Part shown: one piece after another, positions 1 through 63,891 of the stretch
Numbering within the stretch: the stretch's first letter is position 1
Layout of the letters: each line of letters begins with the position of its first letter
Assembly (NCBI GenBank): GCA_040954595.2
Contig: CM082595.2
Location: 1,201,690 to 1,265,689, forward strand
Direction: 5' to 3'
DNA: 64,000 bases
Source of the DNA: Balanoglossus misakiensis
Lineage: Eukaryota; Animalia; Hemichordata
Made by a program: the position numbers and the translations under genes
Notes under the pieces: generated by a model
What the model was told of the DNA's origin: nothing
Databases searched by the model: none
The model's input: only the letters and a program-made list of their open reading frames with translations

Positions 1-87
1 TTGGCCAATTTTCGTGCATTATGTTTGTGATTTTCGTCGATCCATATTTTATATCAATCAAAAATGTTTTATATTCTTCTCTTATAG

Positions 88-2112
88 GTTTAAACGCTCA
101 GCACGACGAAACACAATGCTTCGATGCCAACACTGTAAGTCCAAGCCCGGCTCAGAAGCAACGCGGAATTGCAGCGATTGTTGTGATAATTATTGTAATG
201 ATTGTTACAAGGACAGTCATCCGTGGGGAACACCAAGAGCTAAACATGAATTCACTGCAGTTGGAAATAATAGGCCCAAGGTACGTCTCAGATAGCTCTG
301 TCTGTCTGTCTGTCTGTCACACGTCACTTCACCCACTAATCATGTCACCTACTTTTATATTCCATTTACCTCTTAGGCGATAATGTGCACTGAACACGAA
401 GAAGAAAAGATTGGTTGGTATTGTGACGTCTGTCAGCGTCCGACTTGCAGAGTCTGTAAACTGACCGGAGTGCATGCCGGTCACAAAATGTACGCCATTG
501 CTGCTACATATGCCAAGTTGAAAGTAAGTCTGAAATGGCGAATTCCTTGTCTGAAAATTCCATTCATGAAATTCGTGTTAAATACAGTAAATGGTTAATT
601 TTGTCCGGTTCTTTATCAAGGCTAAACTGATCAAGCAACTTGAACTCGTCGAGGAAAAGAGAAAGGAAATGAAAGAAGCAGTGGCTGGATATGAGAATAA
701 CCTAGAACAGATAGAGGTAAGTGTTTTGTGCAGAATTCCGCCATATTGTTTTTGAGAACGACATTTTGTGTCAGTTGAAGACCATTCAAGCATATAGAGT
801 ATCATAACGCCTTTGCCAAACCTATATGTTTTTTCTCCATCAGGATAATGCCACTAAGATCGAAGAGACAGTGATAACTGACATCGATGAACTTAAATCA
901 AGATTGGAGGAAAAGAAGCGAGAACTCATCGACAAAGTTCACCAGGTGAAAGTGGAGAAAATGGAATATCCCCTGGAGAGAATCCAAAGTTTGAATGAAA
1001 TACTTGGCGACACTGTGGTCGTGGAATATGCTAAGGAGGTTCTCAAAGAAGAGGAACAGGCATGTTTCGTACAAAGTGCTCTGCCGTTAGCTGCCAGGTA
1101 TGACGTCAGTAGAGAGATATCAGCAATTTCCCATAATCAATGGATGGTTTTCAGCTCATTGTGAAATCTCGCGAGACTTGATTAATTATCGTATCAATAC
1201 TCATGTGTATATGTTTTATTTATGAAAAGCATTGTCAACTTTTCTATTTTCCAGACTTGGAAAATTACTAGAATCTTGCAAAGGTAAACCCAAGACGATG
1301 GACGTTGATGTGAATATTAAGTGTGCTTTGGATGTCACCTTTGAAAAAGACGTCATAAGCAGCTTGGATTTCTTGTCGGGTAAGTCATCCTCTGTTTGAT
1401 TCCAGTTTCCACATGCAAAGTGATTTGGTCAAACATTTAGTTGAACCTGGCATACTTCGAGCAGACTCTCATTTTAACAGCATTGATCTCCCTTATCTCT
1501 TTCACTAGTTCCTGGGCCACCAACGCTTTCATCAGACGTTTGCAAGTCTTACGATTCTTTGGTAGTTGAGTGGAGTCGACCAGATGACGATTCCATGGTC
1601 GATTACTACATCCTGGAGTATCGTCTGATTCGTCAAAACTCGACGATTCACGTCGACAGCCAAGAATCGGCAAACAACGTTGACTGGAACATCGTTTACA
1701 ACATCCAAAACTGTTATTACAACATCAACGAGCTTCAAGACGATTCAGAATATGGTTTCCGGTTGAAAGCAGTTAACAAGGCAGGGTCTGGTTCTTACAG
1801 TGACGTCATGGTCTTCAGAACAGATCGAAGACCGAAGTTACCAGGTAAACCTTGCCGTTTGGAGCTTCATGTACTTGTAATGAAAAAAGTGAGACCGTAC
1901 CCAGCCTGGAGCTTTGTTGATTCCATTTAATACTGTTGCTATGGCGACAAAGTCGGTGCGTATCGATGACGTTTTTTTTTCATTTTCCTTCAGTGTTGCC
2001 ACCTGCACTTATTGTGACGTCATCTCAGAGGAGCAGCGATTCTGAAGATACCCCGGATGAACAACTGAAAAATACCATTCGTCTCAGCGATTCCATCTCG
2101 TCCACAGACTGA
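88..2112 (+). CDS. TRIM36/TRIM46-like tripartite motif protein, 5'-incomplete (B-box1, B-box2, coiled coil, COS-like region, FN3, short acidic tail). Exons 88-280, 377-523, 621-716, 844-1097, 1255-1379, 1509-1844, 1994-2112
   Basis: B-box1 CQHC...CSDC...CNDC...HPWGTPRAKHE followed by RPK-AIMCTEHEEEKIGWYCDVCQRPTCRVCKLTGVHAGH matches the recalled TRIM36/46 signature (HPWGT.KA.HE...RPK..MC.EH). A helical coiled-coil exon and an FN3 exon (VEWSRP...YILEY...YGFRLKAVNKAGSGSYS) follow. All exons have GT-AG boundaries and join in frame; TGA at 2110-2112. Confidence 0.85.
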
Positions 2113-2811: not shown

Positions 2812-5800
2812 TCACTTATTTCTAGTCTCGCATGATAATCCATGGTACCCAGATGGACACTCACAGTCTTCAACTAAGACAGCCCTGTCTTGTCCAGTTT
2901 GTTGCGGTACAGCGATATCAAAGGATATATCGCTGATGCTGCAAATAAAAAATAAGAAGAAACTTCTGTCAATCATCTATACGCATGTTCATAGTGACAA
3001 TTAATTAAGTTACATAACTTTATTACTGATTTGAAAACAAATATGAATACAAACCTTGTGAAATCCATCGGTGTTATGTAATATGCCCTTATCAGGAAAG
3101 TGTCGATGTTGGCCAATACTCTCATGAGATCAGGACGACTTACTGGTTCTCGGACGATGATGTCACCACGCCCTCCCTCTTTCAACCAATTAAACTGTAA
3201 ATGCAAATGTCAGAATTGAGATATGATATAATGCAAATATTGACAAGCAAACTGAACAAACTCATGATGTAATTACCTCTCTGAATTCCACAGTTCTTCT
3301 CACTGATGCTCTTAATGTTGGCTGTTGTGCGATGCTATACACCAATGACAAACCACTGCCCTGTGAATATACATGTACATGTACTACAATCAGATTTAGC
3401 GTATTTTAGGGAACAAGACAACGTATAAATGTTGGTTATAATTTGTCACATAAAGGGAGTATATTACGTACCTGTAGAATACAGTCGGGTATATCGTAGT
3501 TCGCTGGAATACCACCATTGTAGTCGTATCTAATAGTGTATTGCAGAGTACCGCCATAGCTAGTCAGCTGTAATTAGAATTCGGAAAATACAGAGTTAAG
3601 AGTTGTGTGTAGAAATGTCTGTAGATCAAGTAAGATTTTGTGTCAGGGATGTATGTATGATACATGTAGCCTCCTACCTGATTACCAAGAAACCTGTTTG
3701 GCAGCATCCAGTAGTAACTCCCCTGCCCGTAGATGTCTGCGAACCGGTTCACGTACAGTTCACCTATTGCCGGATACACCTGCAAGTATCTACTGTCTTC
3801 TGTCCGAATATTAGAAGAGGAATAGCGGTTTACAAGCTGCACTCCTTCCCTGTTGCCACTCTCAGTAAATCGAATCGATTCCTGAAGGAAATAGAAAAGT
3901 CAAGATGTCAGCGTTACGTTTGCTGAAACGTCAAATGACATGCGCAAACATCAGGTTATTTTCTAAATCAAGGGATCAACTATTTACCAGGGACATCAAG
4001 AAGGTGACCTGTGGACTCATACCTGTGTAATGAAGTAACTGCTGCTAACACAATAAGACGCCACACCAAAACAGAAACAATCAACACATTCAGAAGGAGT
4101 TACAGCGTCCGCGTTGAAACGTGTACCAAGACAAACACCATCAGCAGCTACAAGAAAAATAAAATGCAGTCATTAAGAATTTGAACTCAAAAGCGAGGCC
4201 AATAGGGAAAGTTGACCAATCACATGAAGTTGTACTCACGGGTAACTATGACGACGCTGTCGGGTATCGCGAAAACGTTGCCTTTGCTGTTCATAGCCTC
4301 ACAAGTGTAGGCACCAGAATCTTCAGGTCTGGCGTCTGTTATCGTTAAGACGCCTCTGCCGTTGACTGAAGAAGTTGTAACCTGCAAACCACAAACAGAG
4401 AACGTCAACAGTTTCATGATTGGTCTAGTTTTACTATAGGAGAAAATCTTCTAATAATTTCGTTTAATTAGCATGATGTGGTAAACATGTATACGCCAAA
4501 CCACTACTATAAGAAACATCTTTTCAAGTAAGATATAAAACGACGTTACCCTTGGTGGTCCTGGAATATGTCCCCAATTTAATCTCCATGAAATGACAGG
4601 AGTGGGTATCCCTTCTGCTTCACAGATCAGTGTGATGGTTTCACCCTCAGGCACTTGAACCATATCCTCGGGTGGGGTTACAATAACTGGTGGTCCTGTG
4701 ACGTAATCATATCAATCAGTTGAATTAAAGATACACAAAAGAATATTACTCAGAATATCAGTTTCTACAAAGTATCTTAAACAAACTAACCACATCCAAT
4801 TTCATCTGTAAAGTCAAGACAGTCGTCCTGCATATCACACTGATAACTGGCAGGCAAGCACATGTCAGATCGAACACACAGAAACTCCCAGCTTTCACAG
4901 CTACTTCCGGGTAACTTTGGATCTGAAGAGGAACAATCAAAACAGCATTAATATACAAGATAATTCTATACTACGTTTTATATTGATAGGAGCATAATAT
5001 ATCACGTTGCAAAATATCTCAATTCATAAGACAATCACAATGAATAGAGTTTACTTACAACAACGATATTCATCTGAGCCATCACCACAGTCATCCTCGC
5101 CATCACAGACCCAGTTCTTTTGGACGCAGTTTGAATTATAACAGATGAATTCATTGGGTTCACACGGTGGTTCTGTCCCTGCAAATTGACCAATAGCGTT
5201 GTCGGTTACAAATAAGCACTGAATCGTCCACCAGTCAGACCTGCTCTTCTATCCATGACAAGGCAGTTGAAAGACTCGTGTAAACTTACCACAGTTCAAC
5301 TCATCGGAACCGTCTGTACAGTCTGGATCGCCATCACAGAGGAAAGAAATCTTGACACATTCGTCACCGCTTTGGCAGTTGGTTTCGTCCTCTTTGCACT
5401 GCCTGGGTTTGGCTCCTGCATACGATAGTCAACAACAGTGGGCCAAATCAGTTAAAGAATGGGTAAATTTATATTTATTTATTTATTTGATTTATTTATC
5501 CTTCGCTTAGCCTATCTGTTTTGCCGGATGATCTGTGTCAATGACACATATTACGACTTCCGTTGACTTGATTTGAGAGGCACCAAATGTACACCTGTAC
5601 TAGTTTCATAGGAGCATACAGGTGTTGACAACAATATGCAAATTTGTGAGTCATGAATATATTGGTCAGTTGTTTGAAGATCCGTAGAGAAGGACACGTG
5701 AAATGGTAGCCGGCACTAACAGGTAAGATTCAGATATTGCAATTCTTATTTTGAGTCTTATGCTGGTTTGAGTACGTCCTTTTTACAGTACAATCACTCT

Positions 5801-8800
5801 GTCTGTCTGACTGTCTGTCTTTGTCACTGTCTCTGTCTGTCTGTCTCTCTCTCTCTCTCACTTTCATGTCGTTATAATTTTGACAGTGTTCCCTCTGTGC
5901 TTACCACTTTGACTGCACGCCAACGGAATACAGTCAAGTCGACCCTGTTCTAAACCTTCCAGTTCGAACTGAGGTTCAGCATCCGGGTGTCTTTTTAACT
6001 CCACACACAAATATCTGACTTCCTGACATGTCTTGCCCCTCATGTCAATGTTGACCATCAGATCATGGAAAGTTTCCCGAGTGTCCGAGTAGATATCTTG
6101 ATCTTGTTGTGGGTCATTCAAGATATTGGTGGATAGGATGTTCTTGTCTGTGCTGCCGTCGGGTGACGAACTTGTAAATGCTGTCAACTGCCATAAATCG
6201 TCTCCTATGATGTCATCACTGTCAGGTGATGATGTCACGTCAACATTGGGGCGCAAGATGTTTGAACCTTCCTCCTCCGTAATTTCGGGATTAATTATTC
6301 TGATGTCGGTGTCAACTATGACAGCGCGTTTGGGAGCTGAAAAGTACAACATTATCGAAGGGGGTCATGGTCATGTGTTTTTCGGATATGATTGTAAAGG
6401 TTTATTATTTTCCTGACACTTTGAAAAGAAAGCGTTTTGACTTTTAATTACAATATATATGATCGCATTTCTCAAAACTTTCTTGACTGGAAGATTTAAG
6501 TCACCTGACTAAAACTGGAACTATTTGCAGAAGTGGGACTACTTACCCTCTGCACAGGCCAAGGGGACGCAATCACGTTTCACGTCTTCTGGAAGCGCAT
6601 TCATTTCATATTCGGGCACTGCAAAGGGGCCTTTGCCCAACTCCACACAAAAGTAGTGCGTCTCCCTACAATAACGTCCTCTCATGTCAACATTGACCTC
6701 CAGATGTTCAAAGGTCATTGTTCTTCCTCCGTAGAGATCTTGGTCGTCCTGATCAGGTGACAGGACATTCGGGGACACTGTGTGTCTAGAGGTACTGCCA
6801 TCAGATGCATCACTTGTAAATACAGAAAGTTGCCACAGATCGTCACCAGTGATGTCATCACTCAGCTCAGAGGAAGTGACGTCAACGTGAGCACGGATTG
6901 TGTTGTAGTACTCATTTTCCCTGACTGCCGCAGCTCCGACCAATCGTATGGCGGTGTTGATGAGCAAAAGTTGTCTACCTGAAAATAAAAAGGGAAACAG
7001 TTATATATGATGGCGACTTTCAGCATGTTTTAACAATTCCAGGCATAATGTACACGATATTACTATTTCAAATTTCTAACGAAAGACCTAACATTCTAAA
7101 AACTCACTTTCACATGGTGTTTCTTCGCATGCGGTCAATACACGATCATCCGGCTCGGTGCTCAGAGTAAACTTGGGTTTCGGTTTGGACCCTTGTGACA
7201 AAGTAGTGCACAAGTAGGGTACATCGGAGCAGGTTACTCCACTAAAGTCTAAATTGGCCCTGACGGGAGAAAATGAGAGAGCGTGTCCTGGTCGAAGGAT
7301 TTCATTTTGCTGTTCCGGTGTCAACACTTGTTCTACAAAGCCGGTCGATTTCCCCTTGCCATCAGGTCGGGTGTTACCATAGAAACTGAGTTTCCACAAC
7401 TCTTCGCCAGAAATCAAAGTACTGTGAGGAGCTGAGTAAAAGTAAGCATCAAATGTGACTGGATTGAAGGCTGAGTTGTCCTTTATAGTTGTATCTTCTG
7501 ACAAGATCAATCTTCGGTTAGATATAACAGCACCTAGGGATAGAATATAGTGACATGTAGACAATTGTCATTCTCTGCCAAATATTTAAGAAATCTGGCG
7601 ATAATTGTTTTCTTTCAATGAGCTAAGATCGCTAGAAATTCATAAAAACTGTCAAATTTTCCAAAGGAAGAAAGAAAGAAAATGAAGAAGATGACGAGGA
7701 TGATGACGACAACAACAACTCACCTTGACAATTCAATGGAACGCATGTGGTAGACGCTCCCTCAGGTTCAACAGTAAACGTAAACTCAGGTTCTGCTTTA
7801 GGAGACTTGAACAACTGCGCACAGAGGTAATTAGTCTGCGCACATATAGTTCCCGTAGTATTGAGATTGAACTTGATGCGTCGGAAGACCAGAGGAGAGT
7901 TGTTGATCAGATTGGTGTTCACCTGGTTACCGTTCAACACCTGGTTGTCCAATGACCTCATTTTACCTCTCCCACTCAGACTCTTACTGGCCCACACAGA
8001 AAGCTTCCATAGTCGCTCTCCTCTGATTTCGTCGCTCGAGGGATCATAGGGCGCGGTGAAATCAAAAGTGACTTTGTTATTGTCTTGGTTCTCGGTCACT
8101 TTTGTATCTTCGTCCAGTTCAATAACAGCGTCAGTTATTATGACCTCTGCAAAAGGGAAACAAAAGTCATATAATTCAAGTAAAGAAGAGGTTCTTCTGT
8201 CGATTGTCAAGACGTGTCGTTGTGTTGATTAGAAACTAGTGAAGATGATAACCAGACTGTCAGATATACTTAATATTAAGATAAACATTTTGGATCACGA
8301 GGCGATAACTGGTATGTGGTCTGCATTTGGTTTCACAGTGTATGGTTACCTCACCTGGAAGATCATCCGGACAATAGGCACAACATTTGCCAGGTGGTCT
8401 GATTGGGTTGCTGCATTGGGGAAACATACAAGAGACTGTTGTACAGATGGTTGTGCTGTTATCACACTTGCAGGCTGAACATTCATTCTCGTCGAATTCG
8501 TCGCCATGTTTGTAATGGCGTCCTAAATAAACGCAAGGCAGTTTATCTGAAGAAGTAAGAAATGAGAAAGAGACGACGTATCGGTCAGACACATATGGTG
8601 ACGGCTGCGCCTCTATAGGCAAAATGCTCCCCAAATATAAAATTCGTGTGTTGTAAATGGCATCCCTTCCCCCTTTCCCGCAAAGCCTCATATGAAGTTC
8701 AACGTGTGCGTTGCCTAATTTACGAGCTAGTGTCGTTATGCCCAGAATGAGACTGTTGGTTTCTTGTTTCTCAATGACGAACTTACAGGCATATATCAAT

Positions 8801-10561
8801 TTTCTTGTCAGTACTGTTTGACAGAGGGTTACTGGGGTCAAATTGTACGCTTACTGTTCCACAGTCTGTATACTATAATGTTTTTCTTACAGAGTCTAAA
8901 TAAATCTAAATATTAGTTTCTTGGTATCCCGTAAACTATTGGATAAACTGTTATGGTATAGTGCACGCCGGGAAAGCTCAAATGGGAGCTAAACGGTTGT
9001 TATGGTGACAGTTTCCTTGGCTCATTAATCACGCCAAGGTTTGATGAATCAAGCTGACAACAGCTAGGTCGTGCATGTTAACAGACGACTGACCATTGAC
9101 CTCGGGTATTTGGGGAAACAGGTCTGCCTGTCTTCCTGCCGGGTTTTCCTTTCTTCAGTGTTTTTATGGAGCGAAGGAAAACATCACACAACAAGAATAG
9201 TTTGAAAGCGAAGTTAGCAGATGGAGGGTTGACATTCCAAGCCGTGCCACGTTAATCAGTTTCAGATTTGTCCGAAACAAGCTGAAGGGGTCTGCCAAAA
9301 ATTGATGTCAAGTCATGGAAAGTTGTTAGAAGAGAAAAGCGTTCTTCAACGTCACAGAGTCATGTCACTCTTAATGTGAAAGTTTGACCCAAAATCATCT
9401 TTGAAAGTCGTCCATGGCTCAGATAGACGAAAGTTTGACTCGTCAAGAAACTTTCCGGTTTTCATACTCTTTCAGTGAGCTGTGTAATTATTTCTGACAA
9501 GGACAACGTGGGAGTATAGTTTACCATGCAACCTTCAAATAGTAATTTATCACCAGGGACCTGCACAGTGTGTATATACATGTAACAAAGTTCAGCTTTT
9601 AGACGGATATCATGTAGTCGCAGGATCACCCCTAAGGGGATAACCATAGCATATCCAGGAGAGAGGGGTAGATCATGTAGATGGTTTAGAAATTATTAAC
9701 TGCGGTATGAGCCTGGAAGACAGAGAACAAGCGGTTTCTGTACCCTCTCCCGTATATGAAATGGTTCGCCCCTTACATTATGACATCTACTGACACTGTT
9801 TGGCTTTGCCTCCTGATTGATAGTGTTATGGACAGAAGAGGGTTAAGGGTTCTACACTTAGATAAGGTGATGAGGGATTGTTACCATCGAAATTTTAAGT
9901 GATAGGAAAACTGTGTTAAAATGATGCGTCTCTGTACTCAGTAGTGGCCAATTTCTCCACCCATAGCTCAGTTAACCCTTTCTCCACCGTGGTTTAGTCC
10001 AAACCCATTGTTTTCTATGGTAAGGTTAGATCTCTAAAGGGGGAAACTGGGGGTGTAAGGGTTAATAATGGAAGCAAATCAGGGATACATTTAAGGTCAA
10101 GTGGCCAACTGATTGACTCTGTGGGATCCTTGGACTAACAATGTACTGCACTTTGGACGTAACCTTGAGGTCCTATAAGAAACTTTTGTCCTTCAAATCT
10201 ACACGACTGCGTACATTTGAAGGATTTTTTTCCATTTATAAGTTTGTTCCCACCCTCTGCAAATTTAGGGCAACAAGGCCTGTTATCCCAATTTTATAGA
10301 TTTTCATATCGTCCATAATCGAATAACATTTGCAATGGCATTACACACAATTACATTTTAAATTGAAGTATTTTACTTACCGCAATGCTCTTCGTCTGAT
10401 CTGTCATCACAATCCACTCTGCGATCACATCTTCTGTAAGTATCAATGCAGGGTCCGTCATGACACTGAAATTGCCACGGATAACATTGAGACTCCACCG
10501 ATCCGACAAAAACTACCAGGGCAATGAGGGCAAACAGCCCCACTCTCCAAACTGTAGTCAT
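2812..10561 (-). CDS. Truncated perlecan-like secreted protein ('mini-perlecan'), 17 exons, about 1175 aa: SP-LDLa-VWC-4x unknown module-3xLDLa-Ig-laminin EGF/laminin B(IV)
   Basis: Exons (minus strand): 10381-10561, 8355-8546, 7724-8146, 7108-7533, 6547-6978, 5905-6336, 5290-5415, 5059-5178, 4791-4922, 4550-4695, 4240-4381, 4023-4147, 3678-3881, 3472-3567, 3277-3360, 3055-3194, 2812-2938. They sum to 3528 nt with GT-AG boundaries and no internal stop. Perlecan hallmarks include [48 protein letters not shown] and [16 protein letters not shown]. Confidence 0.85.
5797..5860 (+). repeat. (CTGT)n/(CT)n microsatellite, intronic
   Basis: Seen directly; a similar (CTGT)n run lies at about 296-318. 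Confidence 0.7.
5905..8146 (-). CDS. Four tandem single-exon copies of an unrecognised ~140-aa extracellular module (exons 7724-8146, 7108-7533, 6547-6978, 5905-6336)
   Basis: Four ORFs share I.G..LW.L....(S/N)...(D/S)G, (V/I)L...Q, N(L/V/I)(D/N)..G..C....Y(L/F)C..L, P.(F/Y) and a terminal C....C. Exon lengths are 423/426/432/432 nt, all phase 1-1. Confidence 0.85.
8355..8546 (-). CDS. Mini-perlecan exon 2: von Willebrand factor type C (VWC/chordin-like CR) domain
   Basis: [14 protein letters not shown]...CSACKC....ICTTVSC...C.......GKCCAYC has the 10-Cys VWC pattern with CxxCxC and CCxxC; 192-nt phase 1-1 exon. Confidence 0.85.
9972..10065 (+). mobile_element. ~90-bp piggyBac-type MITE, full copy
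   Basis: TTAA-CCCTTTCTCC...GGTGTAAGGG-TTAA; internal sequence shared with the other copies in the window. Confidence 0.75.
10381..10561 (-). CDS. Mini-perlecan exon 1: signal peptide plus LDL-receptor class A repeat
   Basis: [25 protein letters not shown] (hydrophobic leader), then [35 protein letters not shown]; phase-1 GTAAG donor. Confidence 0.85.
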
Positions 10562-12992: not shown

Positions 12993-13091
12993 ATGGCGAC
13001 CCCAAGGAATTCCTCTTCATTGACGATTATGTGGTGGACTTGTCTGTTGTTACTGGTCGTGGTTTGTCAGCTTGGACAGGCCGCCAAGTTG
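12993..13091 (+). CDS. HSPG2: Perlecan exon 1, signal peptide
   Basis: [33 protein letters not shown] followed by GTAAGT; phase 0 matches exon 2 starting at 29102. Confidence 0.75.
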
Positions 13092-28000: not shown

Positions 28001-31000
28001 TTTCAGGCAGCAATTGGCCAGTAATGGTCCTTCACAATTAGATACTGATTTACTGCAAAGCAATAACAGATGCGACTATTACAGTGACGCCAAGATGTTC
28101 ATGTATAGACTACGACGATCTGTCCTTGCCGGTTTCTACCTCCATCAATTCCTAATTATCATCTTGCCTTGTGTGGTCACTCCTGATATTATTGTAACTT
28201 GTGGTGTCACCTTGACGATGGCCATAGAATGTGATCCAGGGCTTTATTGATTAGACCCCAGGCAACTTCCACAAATTGGATGAGATTAGACTCATGGAGG
28301 GTTCCCACTGGCTTGACCCGACACCAATATAGTGTCCGCATTCACTTATGGTCAGAACATTGTAAACACAGGGATTAGCCAGCCAAAAACCAGGTTGTGT
28401 CCACACACTTTTTGTCCAACCAAATACAAACGAATAAAGGAAGTTGATCAAAGCTCCTACTCAGGTTGGCCGGTTGACTTTGATGAAAATCTGTGTGAGT
28501 AGGACACTGGCATGAACTGGTCTCTTTAACCCTTTCACCCCTAATTCCCTGTCTAGAGGTCCAACCTTACCATAGAAAATGATGGGTTTGGACTGAACCA
28601 TGGTGGTGAAAGGGTTAAACGCTTACTTTAAAATTCTAGTATGGGAAAAGTTGACCACTGGATCCCACAGTTGACTCTGCGAAAGTATAAAGCAGGGTGT
28701 ATTTGGTGAATTTTGTGAGGAAAACCAGAGACAAATGATACCATTGTTCCTGTTTACATTGTAACTGAATCATATTATCAGATCTTTAATACTCCTGTGA
28801 TTACAATCATCAGTCTTAGCTTTGTCTTCCAAGATGACCTGTCTAGAGTGTTTCCATAACATGTCCATGTAGTTAGACAAAGCAGACACAACAAACAGAA
28901 TTTCTGTCAATGACTGTCACCACTTCACAGTAAGGTTGTTAACATTGTTAAAATTTAGGTAGGACTTGATTGGTAACCGCATTTTATCGTATCATAAAAA
29001 AAACTTTTTGGTGGGAATGTCTAAATACATCAACTAAAAATATATATTTTTTGTCAGATTACAAACATTAACTACAAATATGTTTTTATCTCGTCTTACA
29101 GGGCAAAGAAGAAAAAGATAGCGTTGGAAAAAATAAAAACTCAGGAAATTCAGACGACATTGTGTTCAATGATCCTTATCCATATAATACATTTGATGAT
29201 GAAGATTATCTCAATGATGACGTCGGGTCTGGTGATGAAGGCAGTGGCATTGAAGTCCCTGAAGGAGCAACATGTAAGTAGTTAAATCCTCTGAAGTTTA
29301 TTCTGTCATCACAATTCTTTCAAAATACTCAGTAGTTGTTATTTTAAGTAACTTTTACTGTTGAAGTGATGTATTAAATACATGTACACCACTTGGGCAA
29401 AGATTGATATAATAAAAAAGTGAAATGACTTGTTATTTCAGTGTATCACAGGGCCATGTTCCGTCTTACAAATGTAGAATACACAGACAGTCTTGCTGAG
29501 GGACCGAGCAATGCTGAATATCGAGCTCTGGCTGCAGAATTTGAAAAAGCAGTAAGTTGTTACAAGTAGTGCTGTAACCAGCGCCCCCATGCGGTGACAA
29601 TGGTTTGCACAACTCAATATTATGTGTATGATATAATATGTACTTCAGCCATTGGAATGTTTTATAAGTTTAAAATTATAAGTGTATTTGTTTAATATCC
29701 CTGACAGGTTGAAGCGCTATTTGCAGGTGTCCCTGGGATGCACATTGTGACAGTTGTTGAGTTTTTGTAAGTACTGTGATATTATATTGCATTAGTCTGT
29801 TACTCTAGAGTTTATAATAACAATAACAATGACAGTTACACAAATACTGTCTTTATGTCATATTTGATTCAATTTTGATTTGATTTGTCATATATCAATA
29901 TTGACTGGTGTTTTGACCACAGGATATTCTTTTTTCCTTTTTTAATTTTTTTCTTTCTTTCATTCAACAGACCTGGCTCAGTAGTTGTCACCTTTGATAT
30001 TGGTGTCACAGATGAATACAACACTGATATGATTGAAGACATCCTCATAAAAGCTGTTGACAGTGGTCAGTTGGGAAATTTTGCATTAGATGATAGTTTC
30101 TTTGTCTTCAAAGTTGTTGGCGGTAAGTACAATCAATATTATGTGTTCTGATTACCATGTAAAAATGAGAGTTACTCTTGTTTCATCCAAGACCACTGTC
30201 AGTCTAGTCAGACTGACCACCAGCCAGTCAGACCACCCATCAATCGGACCATCGATCAATCTTACAACTGGTTGAATTGACCACCAGTTGATCAGACCAC
30301 TGGTCAAACAGTTATTTTACTTTTCAAAAGACCTGCAGATTATGTAGTTTTCACAATGACGAACAAAGTGGAAACAAAACTGATTTGCTTTTGGAATGCA
30401 GACATTGGATTCTCATTGTCTGAGATACGGATAGAAATTTGGGCAGGCATGAGGTTGATGGTTTTGCAATGTTTTTGGACACATCTAGGTTTAGCCCTTT
30501 CACTCCCAGATCCCTCTTTATGTTGTGTATGTGCAAAAGGGTACTATGCATGAGTGAAACTATAGGGAAAACTGGTAACATATCGGCGGTGTTTTACCAA
30601 ATTGCTTTGCCGTGCCACTGGGTAACTTTGGAGAATAGCCCCCTGAATGAAACACTAGCTTTCTTTCTGCAAAGGTATTCCAACAGGCAACGTAACTTTG
30701 AATTAGGGATGAGCTAACCTACCCCCTCCAGTGTTGGTATTCTAAACAGTTTTGTTCAAAGTCAGCGCCAGACAATTTGAAATTTGCAAGACAATCCATC
30801 TGCTATTGAACCAAGGATAGAATGATTCTGGGTGGTTTGTTAATGTGTTGTCACAGATCGTCCGTTAGTTGGCTGCATGTGGTGGGGCTACATGTAGCTG
30901 GAGTCCTGCACTGGTAATATAGACAATTAAATCTATAGCAATGATTGGCCAGTTAGTTTGTATCATCATCCTAAGTGTGTCATTGCTTGGTAAGTACATT

Positions 31001-34000
31001 CTGTAGCTATGACAGTTATTAATGCAAATGTTTTAACTCCTAGTATTAAGATAAATAAGTTTTTTAAAACTTTATATTGCTTTTCGAGCAAGAAAGTTGA
31101 TCCTTTGCAAAAATCATTTAGAAATTGAATTTCTGGATAATGTACTTCGTGATAATTATTGTCGGATGTACTTGTGATTTGTAGAAGAGAAAAGTTACTT
31201 ATAATATACTTGATGCTGTCGAGATAGAACTCTCGAAGAGTTGAAAATTGTCTAGACAATATTCATTAGATGTTATATAATACAAAGTTACAGCAGAAAA
31301 AGAATTGTGGTCAGTGGAATGTTTATAATTTAGAAACTGACCCCACTGTCCACAAGAACAAGTTTTCCAAATAACTCATAATTTACTTGTAACTGTCAAT
31401 TAATTACTGTCTAATCCTTTTATTCTTTTGGCCTCTTAACTCTACCATTCACCAGGTGTAAATCCTTATAAAGGGCTCTTAATTTCAACGACCCTCTCTC
31501 TTTGAATGCGCGACACTAATCAGGGTAGCTTTTCAGACACAAAACTGTTCTACATAAAGCGAAACACTACAGGGGGCAATTTCTTTCCCCAAACAACACT
31601 CCTCTGTTAGGATTAAGTCTCTGTAATCCCAGTATTCCGTGAACATGTTTTCATGGAAGGGTAAAGTCTTGTTCGGAATTTACTTTGTGTCCAGAAAGGC
31701 AGATTTCTCTGAATATACTTTGACAGTCTGTGCAGACATTTCGAAATGTCTGGAGATGTTTATTGCTGCAAAACCAATTTGATTCATGTTGTGAATGTGT
31801 TGAAGTGCATGGAGATCTTATGGTTGTCAGCTGTCTTTGATTTTTATGGGTACATTTGAATTTTTGATTGACACTGGCAGCAGGCAAGTGCTCTTGTAGC
31901 TTTGGTGTCAGTTGTGTAATGTGGAAGTCATATTGACATTATGGGTCCATATCCTCTGATCATATTCTGTCTTCTTCTCTCTTCTGCAGTTGGACCGACC
32001 GAAGCACCGGCCGTACCTTGCAGAGAAAACGAATTCAGATGCAATGATGGTGAATGTGTATCAGAGGACGCTGAGTGTAACGGTGTCCCAGACTGTCGAG
32101 ACCAGTCAGATGAGTTCAACTGTCCCATACCGACACCTCCCATCGCTTTGTGTCGCAACGATCAGTTTATGTGTAAGAGTGGACAGTGTATTCCAAGCAC
32201 TCAAAGATGTGATCGTATACCGCACTGTGGGGACAAGTCCGATGAAATTGGTTGCAGTAAGTATATGTGCATGACAGGACTAAAAGCCAGAGAAAATCAT
32301 AAAAAACATATCTTCAACCTAATGTTACAAAGTCATGTTCAATTTCTAGCATTGTGCAACATCTTGTCAAATCCATCGTCTTCGCCATAAACTGAGACCG
32401 ATAATTGCTTCCATGTTACGTTTGGTATGTCATGGAGGTATTTTCCTTGACCTTTGGTCTTAACCTTTGAAACTGTGTTGCAGTCATTAGGTGATTTGGA
32501 ACGCCCCTGTGGTTGTAGACGTCATGATTGCTATATCATATACATATTTTACTTACATATGTACATACTTACCTACATACATACATACAGGAAAAAAAGA
32601 CTGTGCACATTCAATAGCTAGTTGCATCTTTCTTTACTGTCACATTATAGCAATGAGATCAAACCTCAATTTCTGTATCTCACAGTAACCTATCAACACA
32701 AACCTATATGTATATACCCTATGTGTAATCCATTAGATTATTTACTTCTGTTGGTTTATGTGGTATGCAAGTCTCACATTCTTTTACCAGTGATCAAAAC
32801 TTTTTTTACCCATTAGTATTTCTGTTAATATCACACTTCTTTTATTCTTGCATAATTTCCCTTCAGTGTGTCTATTTTAGAATAGGATGTTCTCTGTTTA
32901 TCTGTTGGTAGTTCATAGCTCACGTGTAGATTAACTGTTTTTAGTTCTTCCCTCGTCTTTCGGTCCAACTGTTCAGGAGTCAGTTGGACCATGACGAGGT
33001 TTGACCTTCCACCCCTGTTAGTTCTTACCTGTGGTGTCTTTTCCTTCTTTCCCTCTTTCTTTGCACAAAAAGTCGAAACCATTCAACCTCCGAGCGTCAG
33101 CTCAATTCGCACACAAGCATCTATGAACAGCATCACTGTATACTGGACACGCCCCACAAACACAGACATAGTGGTGAGGGGGTATACCATTGGATACGGT
33201 GCTAGTATACCTGACGTCTACCAAGTCACTGTTGACAACCGACAATTTGACTACACAATAGAAAACTTGCCTCCTTCCACTGAATATGTGGTCTCTTTGA
33301 GAGCTTTCAACTCAATTGGGGAAAGTTTACCTACGTATGATGTAGTCGTTACGGAAGGTTTACCAAGTAAGTTATAAGTCTGTCATGGGGGGGTCTAATC
33401 AGTCCTTGCATGGAATTATATTAATCTGGAAATATGTATTACATTCAGTGAAATTTATAGATCATGAAGTGATTCAGTTATGTTTTTACTCAAGGCATGC
33501 AATCTTTTCTTCATTAATCTTAAACCAATTTCACCGCTGTCTCTTGTTGTTTTGTTTTCAGTTGTAACATGTAGCCCTGGAAAGTTTCAGTGCGCAAATA
33601 AACAGCTCTGCATCGATGAGAGCTTACGGTGTAATTCAGCGGATGACTGTACAGACGGCAGTGATGAAGAGGGTTGCCCTGTCAACTGTGGTTTTGAGGA
33701 ATTCCCTTGTGCTGATCTCCGACAGTGTATATCAATTTATCAGAGATGTGATGGAACCCCCGACTGTTCTGATGGGAGCGATGAATCCAAATGTGGTGAA
33801 GCGTGCAGTGATGGTCAGTTTCAATGTTCCAGTGGTCAGTGTATCGATGAAAGGCGAAAATGTGACAAGTATTCAGACTGTCCAGACGGCTCTGATGAAA
33901 TGGATTGTGGTAAGTCTTGATTTGGTGTACATGTCTATCCTATATTTGTAATACTAGTTCTCATAAATGTCATCCACAAAAGCATCCTTCTTACTGTCCA

Positions 34001-37000
34001 TTTTATCTCATTGTAGGAACACTTGCTCGCGAATGTGAACTCCGGACTCTGACTATAACCTGCCCAGCCGGCAAGATCAAAGTCATTTCAGCAAACTACG
34101 GCCGAACTGAAAGTGATGTTTGTGGACGAAGCTCTAACACCAACTGCTTGTCTTCAAACAGTCTCAGTATTGTGACAGATTTGTGTGATGGTGAAGAGAC
34201 CTGTAGTATTGATGTGTCACGTCGAGTCTTTGGTGATCCGTGTTTTGGGACCAGCAAGTACTTGGATGTCTATTACGAGTGTGTGGCAGACTTGGTGGAA
34301 CCTGAAGGTATAAATGAAACTTGTATTGTGTTTCTCATTTTTGCAGTTGACAAGTCTTGTTCAAGCATGTTACAAGAAGTCAAGCAGCATAGACAAATCT
34401 TCCTATCAACCAAAATTGACCAAAAATGTCAAAGGAAGCTACTTTGTTCCTATTCGTCTCACCAACCATATTTGACTTTGTGTCCATAGTTACAACTGCA
34501 AGCTTGCCTACAACCAAAGAACCGAAGACTTGCAAGAGAGATGAAATCCAGTGTGACCTCACAGAATGTGTCAAGAAAGACTTTGTGTGTGATGGCGACC
34601 GAGATTGTGAAGATGGAACAGATGAAGCTAGTTGTCGTGAGTTTCTCATCTGTAGTATTCTCCTCATTTAGTATTTAGATTTCTACTATAGTTACCATAC
34701 AGTCCTGAAGATGCTGGAACTGTGTTTGTGGTATTGAACAGTAAGAGACGTGTTTTGGCGAGCGATATTGATGTTTTCTATGTTAAAATTAACTTGTCCA
34801 ATAAATACTTGTAATTTTGTTTGGTAGCCACTGCACCACCGTGTGAACCAAATGAATTTCTCTGTGGAACTGGCAACTGTGTTCAGAAAATCTGGAGATG
34901 TGATGGAGATGAAGATTGCAGTGATGGCTCGGATGAAGTAGGATGTGGTAGGTATTTGATGGCTTGGATGAAGAGTGGAATTCCACTGTACAATAAGTCT
35001 ATATATCAGAGTCCAGTAACTATGCAAATGATACGTGGAGTCCAATAACACCAAGTGTTTTTTTTGTTACTCTGATTGAACCGCCACAGACATTAAATAT
35101 GATAATGTGTAGATTTCATTGATTGATGTTTTTGTTGCAGGTGCGAAAGAAGCTGGTGAACTGTGTGAGCCCTGGCAGTTTGAATGCGTGTCTGGAGATG
35201 AATGTGTTCCAGCAAGTTATCAATGTGATGATGAAATCGATTGCAGAGATAGATCTGATGAAATTGGATGCTGTAAGTTCATGTTGTGTCTGTGGATTGA
35301 TCAAGAAGTTAAAACTAATTGCATAGTTCATAAGAATCTAGTCAACAATATTTCTGACTATAATTTGTAGACATGTTTTTAGCCCATGTTTGCGTGCAAA
35401 GATAATTCTGACAATGCTCATATCTTGCTCTTTGTCCAAAACAGCCGCACCAGTTGTGATCACAGCGCCTGAGGAGTTTGTACAAGTGTCTGTCGGACAG
35501 ACAGTGATCTTGACCTGTCAGGCAGAGGGTATCCCAACACCGATTATTTCATGGCGACTCAACTGGGGACATGTTGGCGAAGCTCCAAGGGTGAGTATAC
35601 AAAACTGTTGTCATGGTGATTAGTGAATTTAATGCAGCGAACTATCTCTCAGTGAACTTCGTGTCCAGCCATATCAGTCATCAATTAGAAATTAAATCAA
35701 TTTTGTGATTGTTGTGTTTTTAGGTTACAGCAACAACCATAAACGGTCTTGGTATTCTGACGATAACCAATGCTCGCGAAGAAGATTCCGGTGCTTATAC
35801 TTGTGAAGCCATGAACAACAAAGGATATCTCTTTGCTGTTCCTGATGGAATTGTTGCTGTTACTCGTAAGTATTACAGAAAATGACACATTTTTGGTGAT
35901 CGGAGATTAGCATTTCAAAGACAGATATTTCCTACTGAGAAAGAATAGATCATGCCACTAATACTTTTTTGCTTCCTTGTGTGTTTTATACAGCACCTGA
36001 AGGCATCTGTCATGATACTGTATTTAATGAGGATGCAATTACCCTAGATGAATGTGTACAGTGTTTCTGTTTCGGTATTGTACAGTATTGTATCAGCAGC
36101 AGTTATTACAGATTTCAGGTATGTATTTGTATTCTTTGTATTTTGTGTATTCTTTGTATTTTTGCAAACAACAATCTGTGTTGCATCAAATCTTAACACT
36201 GTTGTGCATGCTATACAACACTTCTTTATTTGATGATCATTGACATTTCTATTAACTGCATCGCTCGTACTGTTCTGATACTACAGAATACAATCTTCTT
36301 CAATGAACGTGATAATACAAAAGGCGTCCAACTGGCCAATTACAATGGTGGCTTTGTTGATGCTGTTGACAGCCGACATTTACAAGTGCAAGAAATTACC
36401 GGAGAGCTTTTTGTAGAAGACTTCACCAGATCAGTCGGTCAGGGAGAGTTCTATTGGATGTTACCCAGGGAATTCTTGGGAAATCAGGTAAGAAAAAAAT
36501 TTCACCCTTTCACCACCATGGTTTAGTCCGAACCCATTATTTCCAACAGCAATGCTGGACCTTTATACTGAGAAATGGGGGTGGAAGGTTTAAAGTCAGC
36601 GTTAGTCGTAAAATACCAATTTTGATCATTCATTAGTTCATCACCACTATACAACAAAGCTTGACATTCAATATTGTGCTTGATTGATTGATTGATTGAC
36701 TTACCAAATTTGGTTTTGATTGACAGCTGACAAGCTATGGTGGTAACCTGCAGTATATGATTCAATTTGAGACGACAGATATTCCAAGAGGTTCAAACAG
36801 TCCTGATATTATCCTTCGGGTAAGTTCTCAGTTTTGTCATCTTTCTGAAATGTTAGGTGGGATTAGGGAAATAAAAAGGGATGACAGTTCATTAGGTTTA
36901 CAGGATTATAACAAACATATTTATTCATAATCTTTTTGGCTTATCAAAGTCGTGTGATGGTTTGCTTTGTGTTTGTAGGGGAATGGTATTACACTGCAAT

Positions 37001-58000: not shown

Positions 58001-61000
58001 AATAATTTCTTTAGTTGATTTTCCACTTTATGATGAGCAAGCAATCAGAAAAAGCAACCAACTTCATTGTATAAGCATTGTTGTGGGAATAAATAATGAT
58101 ATATTTTTGATTTGATTTGGATTTTAGGTATGACAGTTCTGGAACCAGCCTTCAAAGGAAATTCCTACATGTCTTATGCGGGACTCCGATCAGCTGTCAA
58201 GAAAGTCAAACTAACCGTGACATTCAAACCATCAAGTTTGACAGACGGATTAATTTTGTTCAATGGTCAAAGTCTGCGTGGAAAAGGAGACTTCATCTCG
58301 TTGGCGATCAAAGATGGTGCCATAGAATACAGATACGACAGTGGAACAGGTTAGTAATTACATTTTTTTTTTACTAGAGTAGTACAGGACATAGTTGACA
58401 AGTCTCTGTCAAGTTCTGTCTGTAGTCCCTATCTGGGATGATGTATTGTCGTTTGTTTTTTTAACACAGGACCAGCAATAATCAGGGATACAGGAACTCT
58501 GACAGTTGACAAATGGTATACCGTTGTCCTTGAAAGAGACCAGCAAGATGGGTCTTTGAGTGTCAATGGAGGCTCTGAGGTCACAGGTCGTTCCCCTGGC
58601 AACAGCAGAGGCCTTAACCTAGAATTGGATTTGTATATTGGTGGACATAACAGTTTTGTAGATGTGCCTTCAAGAGTTGAAGTTCAAGGTGGTTTCGTTG
58701 GGTGTGTCAGTGAGGTGAGTGTTCATTGGCTACAGCCATGTCACATGCTTGATATGTAGACCAATCAGTGGGTTAGGAATACAAACATCCTTAGGTGTAG
58801 TAATACCCCGAGAAGTACATGCATCTGATTGCTCGATTTTGAATGCTATTTTAGATAAAGTGTGTGTTCATGTTTCATAGGGCTTGCAAACTTGATTTGC
58901 TAACACTTGGCTAAGGAATGAAATCAAATGATGCTTGTTGCAATTGCAGGTTGAGGTTGACAGTGTGTCGCTCGATTTGATTGGTTCATCTGTGGCCAGT
59001 GCGAATATAGAAGACTGTGGTGATGAGTTCCCCTGTGAGAGATATCCATGCAAGAATGGTGGAACATGTACTCATCTTGGAAAGAACAATTATGAATGTA
59101 TCTGTCTTACAGGAAAATTTGCTGGTAAGATAGTTAGTACTATCTTCATTATTTATGCAGAAAAGTAGTTGTGTGCAGATAGATGCCAAAAATGTTGTGG
59201 CGATCCTTTCTTTCTCATTTGTGCTTCAATTCTTTTATGAAGTTTATGAAATGATTAGTTCTGGTGAAGACAACTACGCAGCAAATTTGTTATGTTTGAT
59301 AACATTAAAAAATTCAAGTTCTATTCTGCACTGTTCTTTTCCATAATTATGAGTATTCATAATCTTGTCATCAGGTCGAAACTGTCAGATGCCAATCAAC
59401 CCTTGCTCAGAGAGAGATCCTTGCAAAAATGGTGGCACATGTCATCCAATGGGCGAAGAATATAAGTGCGACTGTGCACTGGGATTTGCTGGACCGGATT
59501 GTCAATACAGTGAGTTCATCTTCAATCTATTACTATACCACTCAGATAATGTACCTTCTTCATAATGAACACCACAAGCCGAGCTGTCTTACTCAGAAAC
59601 ACTTGTGCGTTATGTTACTTTCATAGAAATAAATGTATCTGTAAACCCTTTTGCTTCTAGCTGCTGTGTTTGACTATGGTGCTGGTTTCAATGCAGATGG
59701 TTATATTTCCTTTCCAAAAACAATTATACCAAGAGTGTAAGTAGAAAATTTCGGTCTCATTTTAACTCGTTCACCCCCAGTTCCCTCTTTAGAAGTCCAT
59801 CCTCAACAAAGAAACTTTATTTCTACATATTTTGTTGATAGAAATGGAAACACAGCAGAAACTATTAGCCTGACGTTCAGAACAACAGCAGAGAATGGTC
59901 TATTGCTTTGGCAAGGAGAGGTGAGTGATATGAATTGAAGTCTGAAATAAAACAGAAATATAGCTGTGAACAGCAATAAGCGGGTTTCGAGACACTTCTA
60001 GCCCTCCAATCCCCCTCCAATGCCCTCCAATCCCCCTCCAATGCCCTCCAATCCCCCTCCAATGCCCCCCAATGCCTTCCAATGCCCTCCAATCCCCCTC
60101 CAATGCCCTCCAATCCCCCTCCAATGCCCTCCAATCCCCCTCCAATGCCCCCCAATGCCTTCCAATGCCCTCCAATCCCCCTCCAATGCCCTCCAATGCC
60201 TTCCAATGCCCTCCAATCCCCCTCCAATGCCCCCCAATGCCTTCCAATGCCCTCCAATCCCCCTCCAATGCCCTCCCTCTGGTCTCGAAACCCTAATTAT
60301 TTACTCTGAAGAGTAATATTGCTTTACCAGGCCAGATGTCTTGTAATGATTCATTTTCCCAAACAAGGGAAATGTTATTACATGTATATGCATGTTGACA
60401 TGTATTGACTTCTAAAGATGTCTAAGTAATCAGATAAGTGTGTTAAACCATTTCATGTTTTATTTTTGTACAGAGGGAAGGTAACTCAGGACGAGGAAAA
60501 GATTTTGTTGCTCTTGGTGTGAGAGACCATCTGCTAGTATTCAGGTAAACAGTCTTAGATTATGCAGAGTTGATTTTCAGTTGCCATGATTTTAATATGC
60601 CACATCCATTCTGAGAATTGAAGACATCTCTCCTGCAAAAATTCACACAGACACACACGTACACACACGCAGCCACAAGCATTGGACACGAATAAGTACA
60701 ATACCACATTGTGTGACAACATTGCAGTGAGTCCAACAGATATCTCCATGGCACTTTGACACAAGTAAAACACTGTACTATTGACCATTTTGTGGATGAT
60801 AGATATAAGTATAATTTGAATGAAGTGATGGAAATATCAAAAGGTTTAATTAAGCATAGTCACAGAGAACGTATGTTGTTTCTATTTCAGTTACGAGCTA
60901 GGAAGTGGAGAAGCCAATATTTATTCCAGTAAAAGAGTAACAGATGGTGAATGGCACACTGTCACCCTACAAAGGTAGGTACCGTCTGTATATGACCTTA

Positions 61001-63143: not shown

Positions 63144-63891
63144 TCAGAGTGCGAAATCCAAGTACGACAAATGTCTTATTGCCTTGTATTGATTTGGAAT
63201 GTCCATCAATGTGTGCACGGCTAATGTTGTTTCTGGTTTCTCAGCATGTGACATGACGGCGTGGAAATTCACAAAGTGGAAGTTTTCAAATTTCCTGCGG
63301 GGAAGATCTTCAATGAAGCTGCCGACCATATCCCATGGTCCATCACCAACACCAACCACAATGATTGACAGGGGATATTTAGAAGCTTCTTTAATGGCAG
63401 ACTTGGTTGCCCTCTCAGACGTCACATGACCATCGGCTATTATGACGAGTATGTGATACTGTGAAATGAAAAGATAAAAAGAATTACATGTATGGAATGG
63501 TATGTGATTTTTATGAAAACAAGATTGTGAACACCCTATTTCTTTTTTCATTTTCAAAAAGACTTCTTAGAACTCTGTGAAATATGTTTGTAAGATGCAA
63601 ATGTACTACTGTAAAGGGATGCATTTATAGGAAAACACTTACTGCTTTGGTTGTTTTGACGATATCAATGGCTTGTTTAATGATTGGAGCATAGTTTGTT
63701 GGTCCACTGAGTCTAACTGATGCTGTAACTTCTTTGTACGTCTGCAGAACATCCTGGAACCCAAAGCATGAGGCGTTCACTTTGAAAGGAAACACTCTCT
63801 TATCCCGAGTGGAACTATCACCAAAACCGAAGACTGGAATCAATCCATCTTCATCAAATGGAGCCAAGGTTTCACCTAGGATAGAAATAAC
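63144..63891 (-). CDS. Atypical copine / RGLG-CPNA-type vWA domain protein, last two exons (63643-63891, 63144-63458), 5'-incomplete
   Basis: [17 protein letters not shown]...[15 protein letters not shown]...[12 protein letters not shown]...[18 protein letters not shown]...R.F.NF.FVNF...[11 protein letters not shown] matches the copine A domain, with the GDGPWD variant typical of RGLG/CPNA proteins. Confidence 0.85.

Follow-up and report, generated by a model that had tools for sequence, protein, structure and literature searches.

A DCC/neogenin FN4-type fibronectin type III exon in acorn-worm perlecan, a putative netrin-binding module

Introduction

A long-standing question is how netrin is retained near its source and presented to axons as a substrate-bound cue, and its retention is usually ascribed to heparan sulfate and matrix stickiness. 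The locus described here raises the question whether a matrix proteoglycan could hold netrin with a domain of the netrin receptor itself. The analysed window is a 64,000-nucleotide (nt) stretch of the acorn worm Balanoglossus misakiensis (GenBank assembly GCA_040954595.2, contig CM082595.2, positions 1,201,690 to 1,265,689 of the forward strand), and all coordinates below refer to it. It contains a perlecan gene whose domain II includes an exon (33073-33366) encoding a fibronectin type III (FN3) domain. A first-pass annotation had proposed that this exon resembles the fourth FN3 domain (FN4) of the netrin receptors DCC and neogenin, was captured from a DCC-family gene and might enable perlecan to bind netrin.

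The FN4-bearing perlecan is real, correctly identified and conserved across acorn worms, and it is a previously undescribed form of perlecan. Public gene models already include the domain, and its sequence is therefore not new. Full-text searching, with most subscription journals outside its scope, revealed no description of a DCC-type FN3 in perlecan. The accessible portions of a paper on perlecan evolution mention neither hemichordates nor fibronectin nor netrin (PMC4398486), those of a perlecan review neither hemichordates nor fibronectin type domains nor netrin (PMC6266596), and the accessible main text of the hemichordate genome paper does not mention perlecan (PMC4729200). Echinoderm perlecan appears as vertebrate-like in the accessible part of a review on the echinoderm extracellular matrix (PMC10381214).

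Identity of the domain

The exon at 33073-33366 (plus strand) comprises 294 nt, or 98 codons, in phase 1-1. Its stop-free translation of 97 amino acids (aa) from 33075-33365, referred to as P0001, contains the peptide quoted in the first-pass annotation and was assigned to the fn3 family in a Pfam scan (E 2e-11). As annotated before, the exon is intact and flanked by phase 1-1 exons of perlecan domain II, with LDLa repeats 1-2 upstream (31990-32256, plus strand) and LDLa repeats 3-5 downstream (33562-33909, plus strand).

P0001 is specifically an FN3 of the DCC/neogenin FN4 type. The six PDB sequences most similar to it are all neogenin or DCC FN4 domains, and five of the alignments have single-domain scores of 75-88 bits. 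Among longer database proteins the best 120 of 274 matches comprised 118 proteins named neogenin, one uncharacterised and one unnamed protein, with 48-53% identical aa. Comparison with 30 DCC-like proteins from vertebrates and invertebrates revealed the domain at the FN4 position as the best match in 30/30 (45-90 bits), and all other FN3 domains reached at most 21 bits. Profiles for the individual DCC domains, built from 24 proteins with six FN3s, gave 111 bits for FN4 and 24-39 bits for FN1-3, FN5 and FN6 on P0001. The FN4 profile scored 91, 93 and 76 bits on the orthologous perlecan copies described below.

Phylogenetic analysis placed P0001 in a 50-row FN4-type group (94/88) apart from 58 other DCC FN3s (98/89) in a tree of 112 rows. 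In a 38-row tree, from which 19 of the 50 FN4-type rows had been dropped as near-duplicates or long branches and which included seven outgroup rows, the FN4-type clade was separated from DCC FN1-3 at 100/99. The AlphaFold model of P0001 showed seven strands with a predicted local distance difference test (pLDDT) score of 95. A Foldseek search with this model returned DCC/neogenin FN4 chains at ranks 1-9 with template modelling (TM) scores of 0.91-0.96, and other FN3s reached at most 0.84; since an FN4 alignment underlay the model, this result does not count independently of the sequence. Searching the ESM Atlas with P0001 detected generic fn3 clusters only. The match far exceeds what chance would give, and the earlier claim that it extends beyond generic FN3 residues is borne out by database search, profiles, trees and fold, which all give DCC/neogenin FN4; in both sequence search and phylogeny FN4 is the best match among the DCC FN3s, and P0001 lies inside the FN4 clade.

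The host gene

The perlecan of Ptychodera (P0314, 3613 aa) aligned from residue 42 to its last residue, 3613, collinearly with positions 29129-61622 on the plus strand of the window (tblastn), and Pfam detected LDLa and Ig domains in the host gene; both confirm the earlier assignment to perlecan. The clean domain II exons share 67-79% identical aa with Ptychodera, 60-71% with Glandiceps and 56-69% with the perlecan model XP_006821841.1. From the collinearity and these identities it follows that the host gene is a complete perlecan with the domain order I-V, likely from an acorn worm near Ptychodera flava yet distinct from it.

Exon 1 (12993-13091, plus strand) provides the start codon and a likely signal peptide; the encoded N-terminus is hydrophobic and resembles that of Ptychodera perlecan. 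The domain I exon (29102-29273, plus strand) encodes Ser-Gly at residues 76 and 81 behind an acidic stretch. These are likely heparan-sulfate attachment sites, predicted because such attachment is known in perlecan domain I, and they lie approximately 210 residues N-terminal to the FN4 module. Three exons at 29442-30122 (plus strand) correspond in alignment to the equivalent part of Ptychodera perlecan and encode a likely SEA domain, for which the one fragment scanned gave no Pfam match. The remaining part of the gene (34490-61622, plus strand), with LDLa repeats 6-8, Ig, laminin IV/LE, the Ig run as well as the domain V region at the C-terminus, is likewise collinear with Ptychodera perlecan. 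Twelve exons between the start codon at 12993 and position 35272 join in an open reading frame, whether exon 33073-33366 is included or left out.

No second FN4-like copy was detected by tblastn in the 64-kb window, and the exon encodes a lone FN3 amid LDLa exons. A DCC/neogenin receptor gene, with four Ig domains, six FN3s, a transmembrane segment and a Neogenin_C tail, was considered for the locus and ruled out, since a single FN3 stands here in perlecan.

Distribution and origin of the module

A full HMMER scan revealed the same domain in the same slot of XP_006821841.1 (P0190), which we take to be the perlecan of Saccoglossus kowalevskii. A search with the domain II-III region of P0190 yielded 1912 matches, and the 120 long proteins listed among them comprised 98 perlecan-like and 22 amphioxus LE-repeat proteins. 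Together with P0190 itself, six of these contained an FN3 of any kind, namely P0190, the Glandiceps perlecan and four bivalve perlecans. Three of 47 further cluster members carried the module (Ptychodera X1, Ptychodera X3 and Glandiceps X1). The FN4-type module is present in five of the six acorn-worm perlecan models and in 0/162 of the remaining proteins of this 168-protein set, which consists of gene models, contains no pterobranchs and is weaker evidence of absence than genomes would be. The negative proteins include those of Acanthaster, Patiria, Asterias, Diadema, Lytechinus, Amphiura, Branchiostoma, Owenia, molluscs and chelicerates; those models from echinoderms and amphioxus that were checked extend through domain II. 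Proteins of 2668-5000 aa searched with the FN3 region of P0190 gave 43 candidates, among which only two amphioxus tenascin-like proteins were found. As this search missed the Glandiceps and Ptychodera carriers, such blanks are weak. The FN3 of the bivalve perlecans was rejected as an ortholog: it scored at most 14 bits to P0001 and at most 17 bits on any DCC FN profile, and fell into a separate clade.

Individual alignments of the window exon with the domain in the same slot showed 68% identical aa for Ptychodera (XP_070560390.1), 64% for Glandiceps (XP_077998598.1) and 60% for XP_006821841.1. The corresponding values for the flanking LDLa exons are 76, 60 and 56% upstream and 67, 62 and 62% downstream. 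This similarity to the neighbouring exons implies a comparable constraint at the protein level. The four perlecan copies and a likely secreted protein of Glandiceps (described below) form one clade in both trees (99/90 with 112 rows, 96/87 with 38 rows).

The simplest reading of this distribution is a single insertion in the acorn-worm stem, after the split from echinoderms. The accessible text of the hemichordate genome paper dates the echinoderm split to 559 million years ago (Ma) and the harrimaniid-ptychoderid split to 373 Ma (PMC4729200). The capture would accordingly fall between 559 Ma and 373 Ma, where the lower bound depends on P0190 being a Saccoglossus protein. Exon shuffling from the DCC family is the likely source. 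Of the proposed capture from a DCC-family gene, the inherited FN4-type insertion common to four acorn-worm perlecans stands, whereas the exact donor is not settled by the trees, because secreted DCC-derived proteins carry FN4-type domains as well. A point against descent from the receptor gene is that the perlecan clade was not sister to the Saccoglossus neogenin FN4 in free trees; this grouping was not rejected when tested (approximately unbiased test, p-AU 0.217).

Splicing of the exon

The acceptor of the FN4-type exon (33047-33072, plus strand) has a pyrimidine-rich tract followed by a purine run ending in AAG, and the donor (33367-33372, plus strand) is a consensus GT donor, GTAAGT. The endings of 11 internal acceptors examined in the perlecan gene are CAG in seven, TAG in three and AAG in one, the last being that of exon 33073-33366 only. 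Of the Ptychodera RefSeq perlecans, X1 has 3710 aa and X2 has 3613 aa, and the difference of exactly 97 residues corresponds to this exon. RefSeq isoforms are usually based on transcript evidence. The exon is probably spliced as an optional cassette, as suggested at first annotation from the weak acceptor: the AAG, the symmetric 1-1 phase and the Ptychodera pair with and without the exon are in line with that suggestion. It is not upheld by Glandiceps, where both isoforms examined include the exon, so that skipping is seen in one species only, and this in automated gene models.

Conservation of the putative netrin-binding surface

The interface between DCC FN4 and the netrin LN domain is described in the accessible text of two structural papers as mainly hydrophobic, 686 square-angstrom in size, centred on netrin F55 and independent of the FN5 site (PMC8063088; PMC5563286). 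In the available part of a further study FN4 appears as the strongest DCC site for netrin, and one that neither UNC5 nor draxin uses (PMC10871540). The DCC substitutions V793G and G805E lie within this interface, and both abolish binding, according to the accessible text of PMC8116049. DCC numbers used here equal the P0001 position plus 721, as set by the primers in the accessible part of the same paper and by the PDB alignments.

V793 is retained in the window, Ptychodera and Glandiceps copies and is replaced by Leu in P0190. Seventeen columns that are conserved in DCC FN4 (n=30) but seldom shared by the remaining DCC FN3s were defined as FN4-specific. Of these residues the window copy retains 14/17, Ptychodera 13, Glandiceps 12 and P0190 9; DCC FN4s retain 11-16, and the other FN3s of DCC no more than 4. 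The set retained in the window includes R756, G761, G763, P767, D768, V793, S795, R797, P807 and Y809. In the model the retained residues gather on the C-C' loop and along strands C, F and G, the side that bears V793; outward-facing residues were derived from the strand pattern of the model and not from coordinates.

Several observations weigh against netrin binding by the module. G805 is Gly in 30/30 DCC FN4s and Ser in 4/4 perlecan copies, and R779, conserved in 24/30 DCC FN4s, is Phe or Thr in 4/4 perlecan copies. The P0190 copy is eroded to 9/17, with the substitutions V793L, G763S, P767R and Y809I. Cell binding was lost on deletion of the FN4-FN5 linker from a DCC construct (PMC5563286, accessible text), and the lone FN4 of perlecan has no FN5 site, which in the receptor contributes avidity. 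The prediction that netrin-contact residues are kept holds for V793 in three of four copies and fails for G805, these two being the DCC-side interface residues compared. Conservation of residues indicates that the putative netrin-binding surface is preserved in large part, though incompletely. Judged from the sequence, binding by the perlecan module appears plausible, with even odds.

FN4-type domains outside receptors

A survey of lone FN4-type domains in automated gene models, with FN4 as the query and not FN1-3, FN5 or FN6, revealed further non-receptor proteins. A starfish (Acanthaster) protein with Fz, Ig, SRCR and LDLa domains (P0137) has two FN4-type copies, which group with the starfish neogenin FN4 (98/95). 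A likely secreted protein of the snail Gigantopelta (P0135) consists of two FN4s, which fall loosely together with several sequences, a bivalve DCC-like FN4 among them (85/93). P0135, P0136 and P0137 all have tandem FN4-type domains with no adjoining DCC-type FN3s. The sequences suggest that the FN4 domain was exported independently and repeatedly into non-receptor proteins.

The Glandiceps talaboti protein P0186 (XP_077999490.1, 169 aa) is likely secreted, contains one FN4-type domain of the perlecan-exon clade and is encoded on a contig other than that of perlecan. The residues just after its domain resemble the start of the next perlecan exon, hinting that P0186 may be a partial copy of perlecan. 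It is a candidate soluble netrin decoy.

Long FN3 arrays were observed in gastropods (P0143, P0151, P0152, P0197) and similarly in P0141, P0145, P0146, P0181, P0199, P0225 and P0240, several of them named 'neogenin-like'. They contain a DCC-like FN3-FN4(-FN5-FN6) block, and a hydrophobicity scan detected no transmembrane segment; these arrays are possible soluble paralogs of the DCC ectodomain. An FN4-FN5(-FN6)-like block is also found in P0217 (TARSH_C, ABI3BP-like), P0245 and P0192, and suggests that the N-terminal FN3s of ABI3BP-type proteins may share ancestry with the DCC ectodomain.

Other features of the window

A second inserted exon in domain II (34017-34307, plus strand, phase 1-1) is intact and encodes a SUEL/rhamnose-binding lectin domain (Pfam E 4e-22). 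No SUEL match was found in the 168 proteins of the perlecan set, including the Ptychodera and Glandiceps models, and the exon is possibly a recent capture at the species level.

A short perlecan paralog (approximately 2812-10559, minus strand) lies head-to-head with the full gene, the start codons being approximately 2.4 kb apart. It encodes in order a likely signal peptide, LDLa, VWC, a set of four unknown repeats, three further LDLa, Ig and laminin IV, followed by a stop. The four repeats (approximately 5905-8146, minus strand) are single exons of approximately 140 residues, each with a few cysteines, and represent an unnamed extracellular module; Pfam matched none of the four (0/4), and the ESM Atlas gave no usable match for the one repeat queried. 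Positions 2-1927 (plus strand) hold the 3' part of a TRIM-like gene with two B-box exons and a generic FN3, convergent with the short perlecan paralog. Copine-family vWA exons are located at 63147-63891 (minus strand), just past the 3' end of perlecan. A short-unit tandem repeat with repetitive minus-strand open frames occupies approximately 59900-60300 in a perlecan intron near the 3' end.

Discussion

We propose that the FN4-type exon between LDLa repeats 2 and 3, likely a cassette and likely captured from the DCC family by exon shuffling, would let perlecan bind the netrin LN domain, and we put the probability of this reading at about 50%. All steps beyond the sequence facts are what we infer for such a protein. 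Heparan-sulfate chains on the nearby domain I would gather netrin, and the FN4 module would dock on the netrin LN site via its C/F/G strand face, so that netrin would become fixed to the basement membrane under the nerve plexus. The LN site occupied in this way would be the one that DCC FN4 needs for receptor cross-linking, and the EGF sites of netrin for DCC FN5/6 and for UNC5 would remain free. Perlecan-held netrin would therefore act as a short-range, substrate-bound cue and would compete with DCC clustering, not with UNC5 binding. Splicing of the cassette could switch netrin tethering on or off by tissue or stage. The anatomical setting agrees with this proposal: in Saccoglossus netrin narrows to a ventral line beneath the axon tract (PMC1551926, accessible text), and neurites are described as lying on the basement membrane without crossing it in the available part of PMC10508912. 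The wider proposal is tentative: perlecan would be a splice-switchable netrin trap that also competes for the DCC site and spares UNC5, and acorn-worm perlecan, the starfish protein P0137 and the snail protein P0135 would represent at least three independent lone-FN4 exports and an undescribed invertebrate class of netrin-binding matrix proteins or decoys.

The module might instead descend from DCC FN4 and have lost netrin binding. It would then persist as a folded spacer, or serve a new partner, within a domain II that accepts modules readily. The loss of G805 and R779 in all four copies and the eroded face of XP_006821841.1 would fit this explanation, as would the fact that the same LDLa run took in the SUEL lectin exon in the window and an unrelated FN3 in four bivalve perlecans, and that the short neighbouring paralog carries VWC and unknown modules. 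However, the likely outward residues of the C and F strands (G761, G763, V793, S/T795, R797 and F799) are retained in three or four of the four copies, whereas on the opposite sheet several positions that likely point outward (P0001 residues 12, 14, 23 and 59) vary freely. A pure spacer would have no reason to keep those C- and F-strand residues, and we consider a loss of binding, the main alternative, possible but less likely. It is also conceivable that the donor was not the receptor gene but a paralog derived from DCC that is secreted and has an FN3-FN4-FN5-FN6 block, similar to ABI3BP/TARSH or to the gastropod 'neogenin-like' arrays. FN4-type domains in DCC-like order do occur in proteins in which the hydrophobicity scan found no transmembrane segment (for example P0143, P0151, P0197, P0245, P0192 and the TARSH_C protein P0217), and the domain of gastropod P0143 also has Ser at position 805 and in the 38-row tree falls with the perlecan clade (92/92, unstarred). 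This grouping is missing from the 112-row tree, though, the top identities outside the perlecan clade belong to true receptors (48-53%), and no such secreted paralog was found in acorn worms except the lone-FN4 protein P0186, all of which makes a secreted donor unlikely.

The netrin LN domain is homologous to laminin LN, and perlecan is located beside laminin; the module could thus bind laminin LN and link perlecan to the laminin network instead of netrin. We regard this as quite improbable: the FN4 complexes among the PDB and Foldseek matches are all with netrin-1, and laminin binding is unsupported by any analysis here. Even less credible is a stranded, unexpressed fragment within a perlecan intron, despite the single AAG among the 11 acceptors examined and the one Ptychodera isoform that skips the exon, as the exon has an open frame and matching phases, is kept in four species at the identity of its flanking exons and is included in five of six acorn-worm perlecan models.

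If netrin binding by the FN4 module holds true, a perlecan equipped with the netrin-binding domain of the receptor itself would offer netrin a defined, natural protein anchor in animals whose nerve plexus follows the basement membrane, and the isoforms with and without the exon would serve as a built-in control. Even without binding, the locus documents exon shuffling into a matrix gene that is among the most conserved, and the case is dated and well supported. Together with the lectin exon, the short paralog and the FN3 of bivalves, the FN4 exon marks domain II of perlecan as a site where new modules have landed repeatedly.

Comparison with known systems

The FN4 domains of DCC, neogenin, Frazzled and UNC-40 (PDB 4PLN, 4PLO, 7NDG, 7NE1, 1X5I, 2EDB) share approximately 43-53% identical aa and the fold (TM 0.91-0.96) with the window domain, and V793 is common to both. 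In contrast to the DCC receptor, the window FN4 stands alone in a matrix protein that is secreted and has no FN5/FN6, Ig1-4, membrane span or cytoplasmic tail. The window gene has in common with perlecan/HSPG2, including UNC-52 and Trol, a likely signal peptide, Ser-Gly dipeptides in domain I, a likely SEA domain, LDLa and Ig, laminin IV/LE, the Ig run and domain V. Its domain II comprises eight LDLa repeats with the FN4-type and SUEL insertions, whereas human domain II comprises four LDLa repeats and one Ig, as given in the accessible text of PMC6266596. Perlecan models of the bivalves Sinanodonta, Ruditapes, Mya and Dreissena (P0349, P0370, P0386, P0388) also have an FN3 among the domain II LDLa repeats; it is unrelated to that of the window exon and represents an independent, convergent gain in domain II. 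In C. elegans the perlecan UNC-52 affects UNC-6/UNC-40 guidance, according to the accessible part of PMC4019552, and the likeness to the window case is that a perlecan-containing matrix shapes netrin/DCC guidance. The C. elegans evidence reported there is genetic and points to integrin and kinase signalling, whereas the acorn-worm perlecan contains a receptor-derived domain with putative direct netrin binding.

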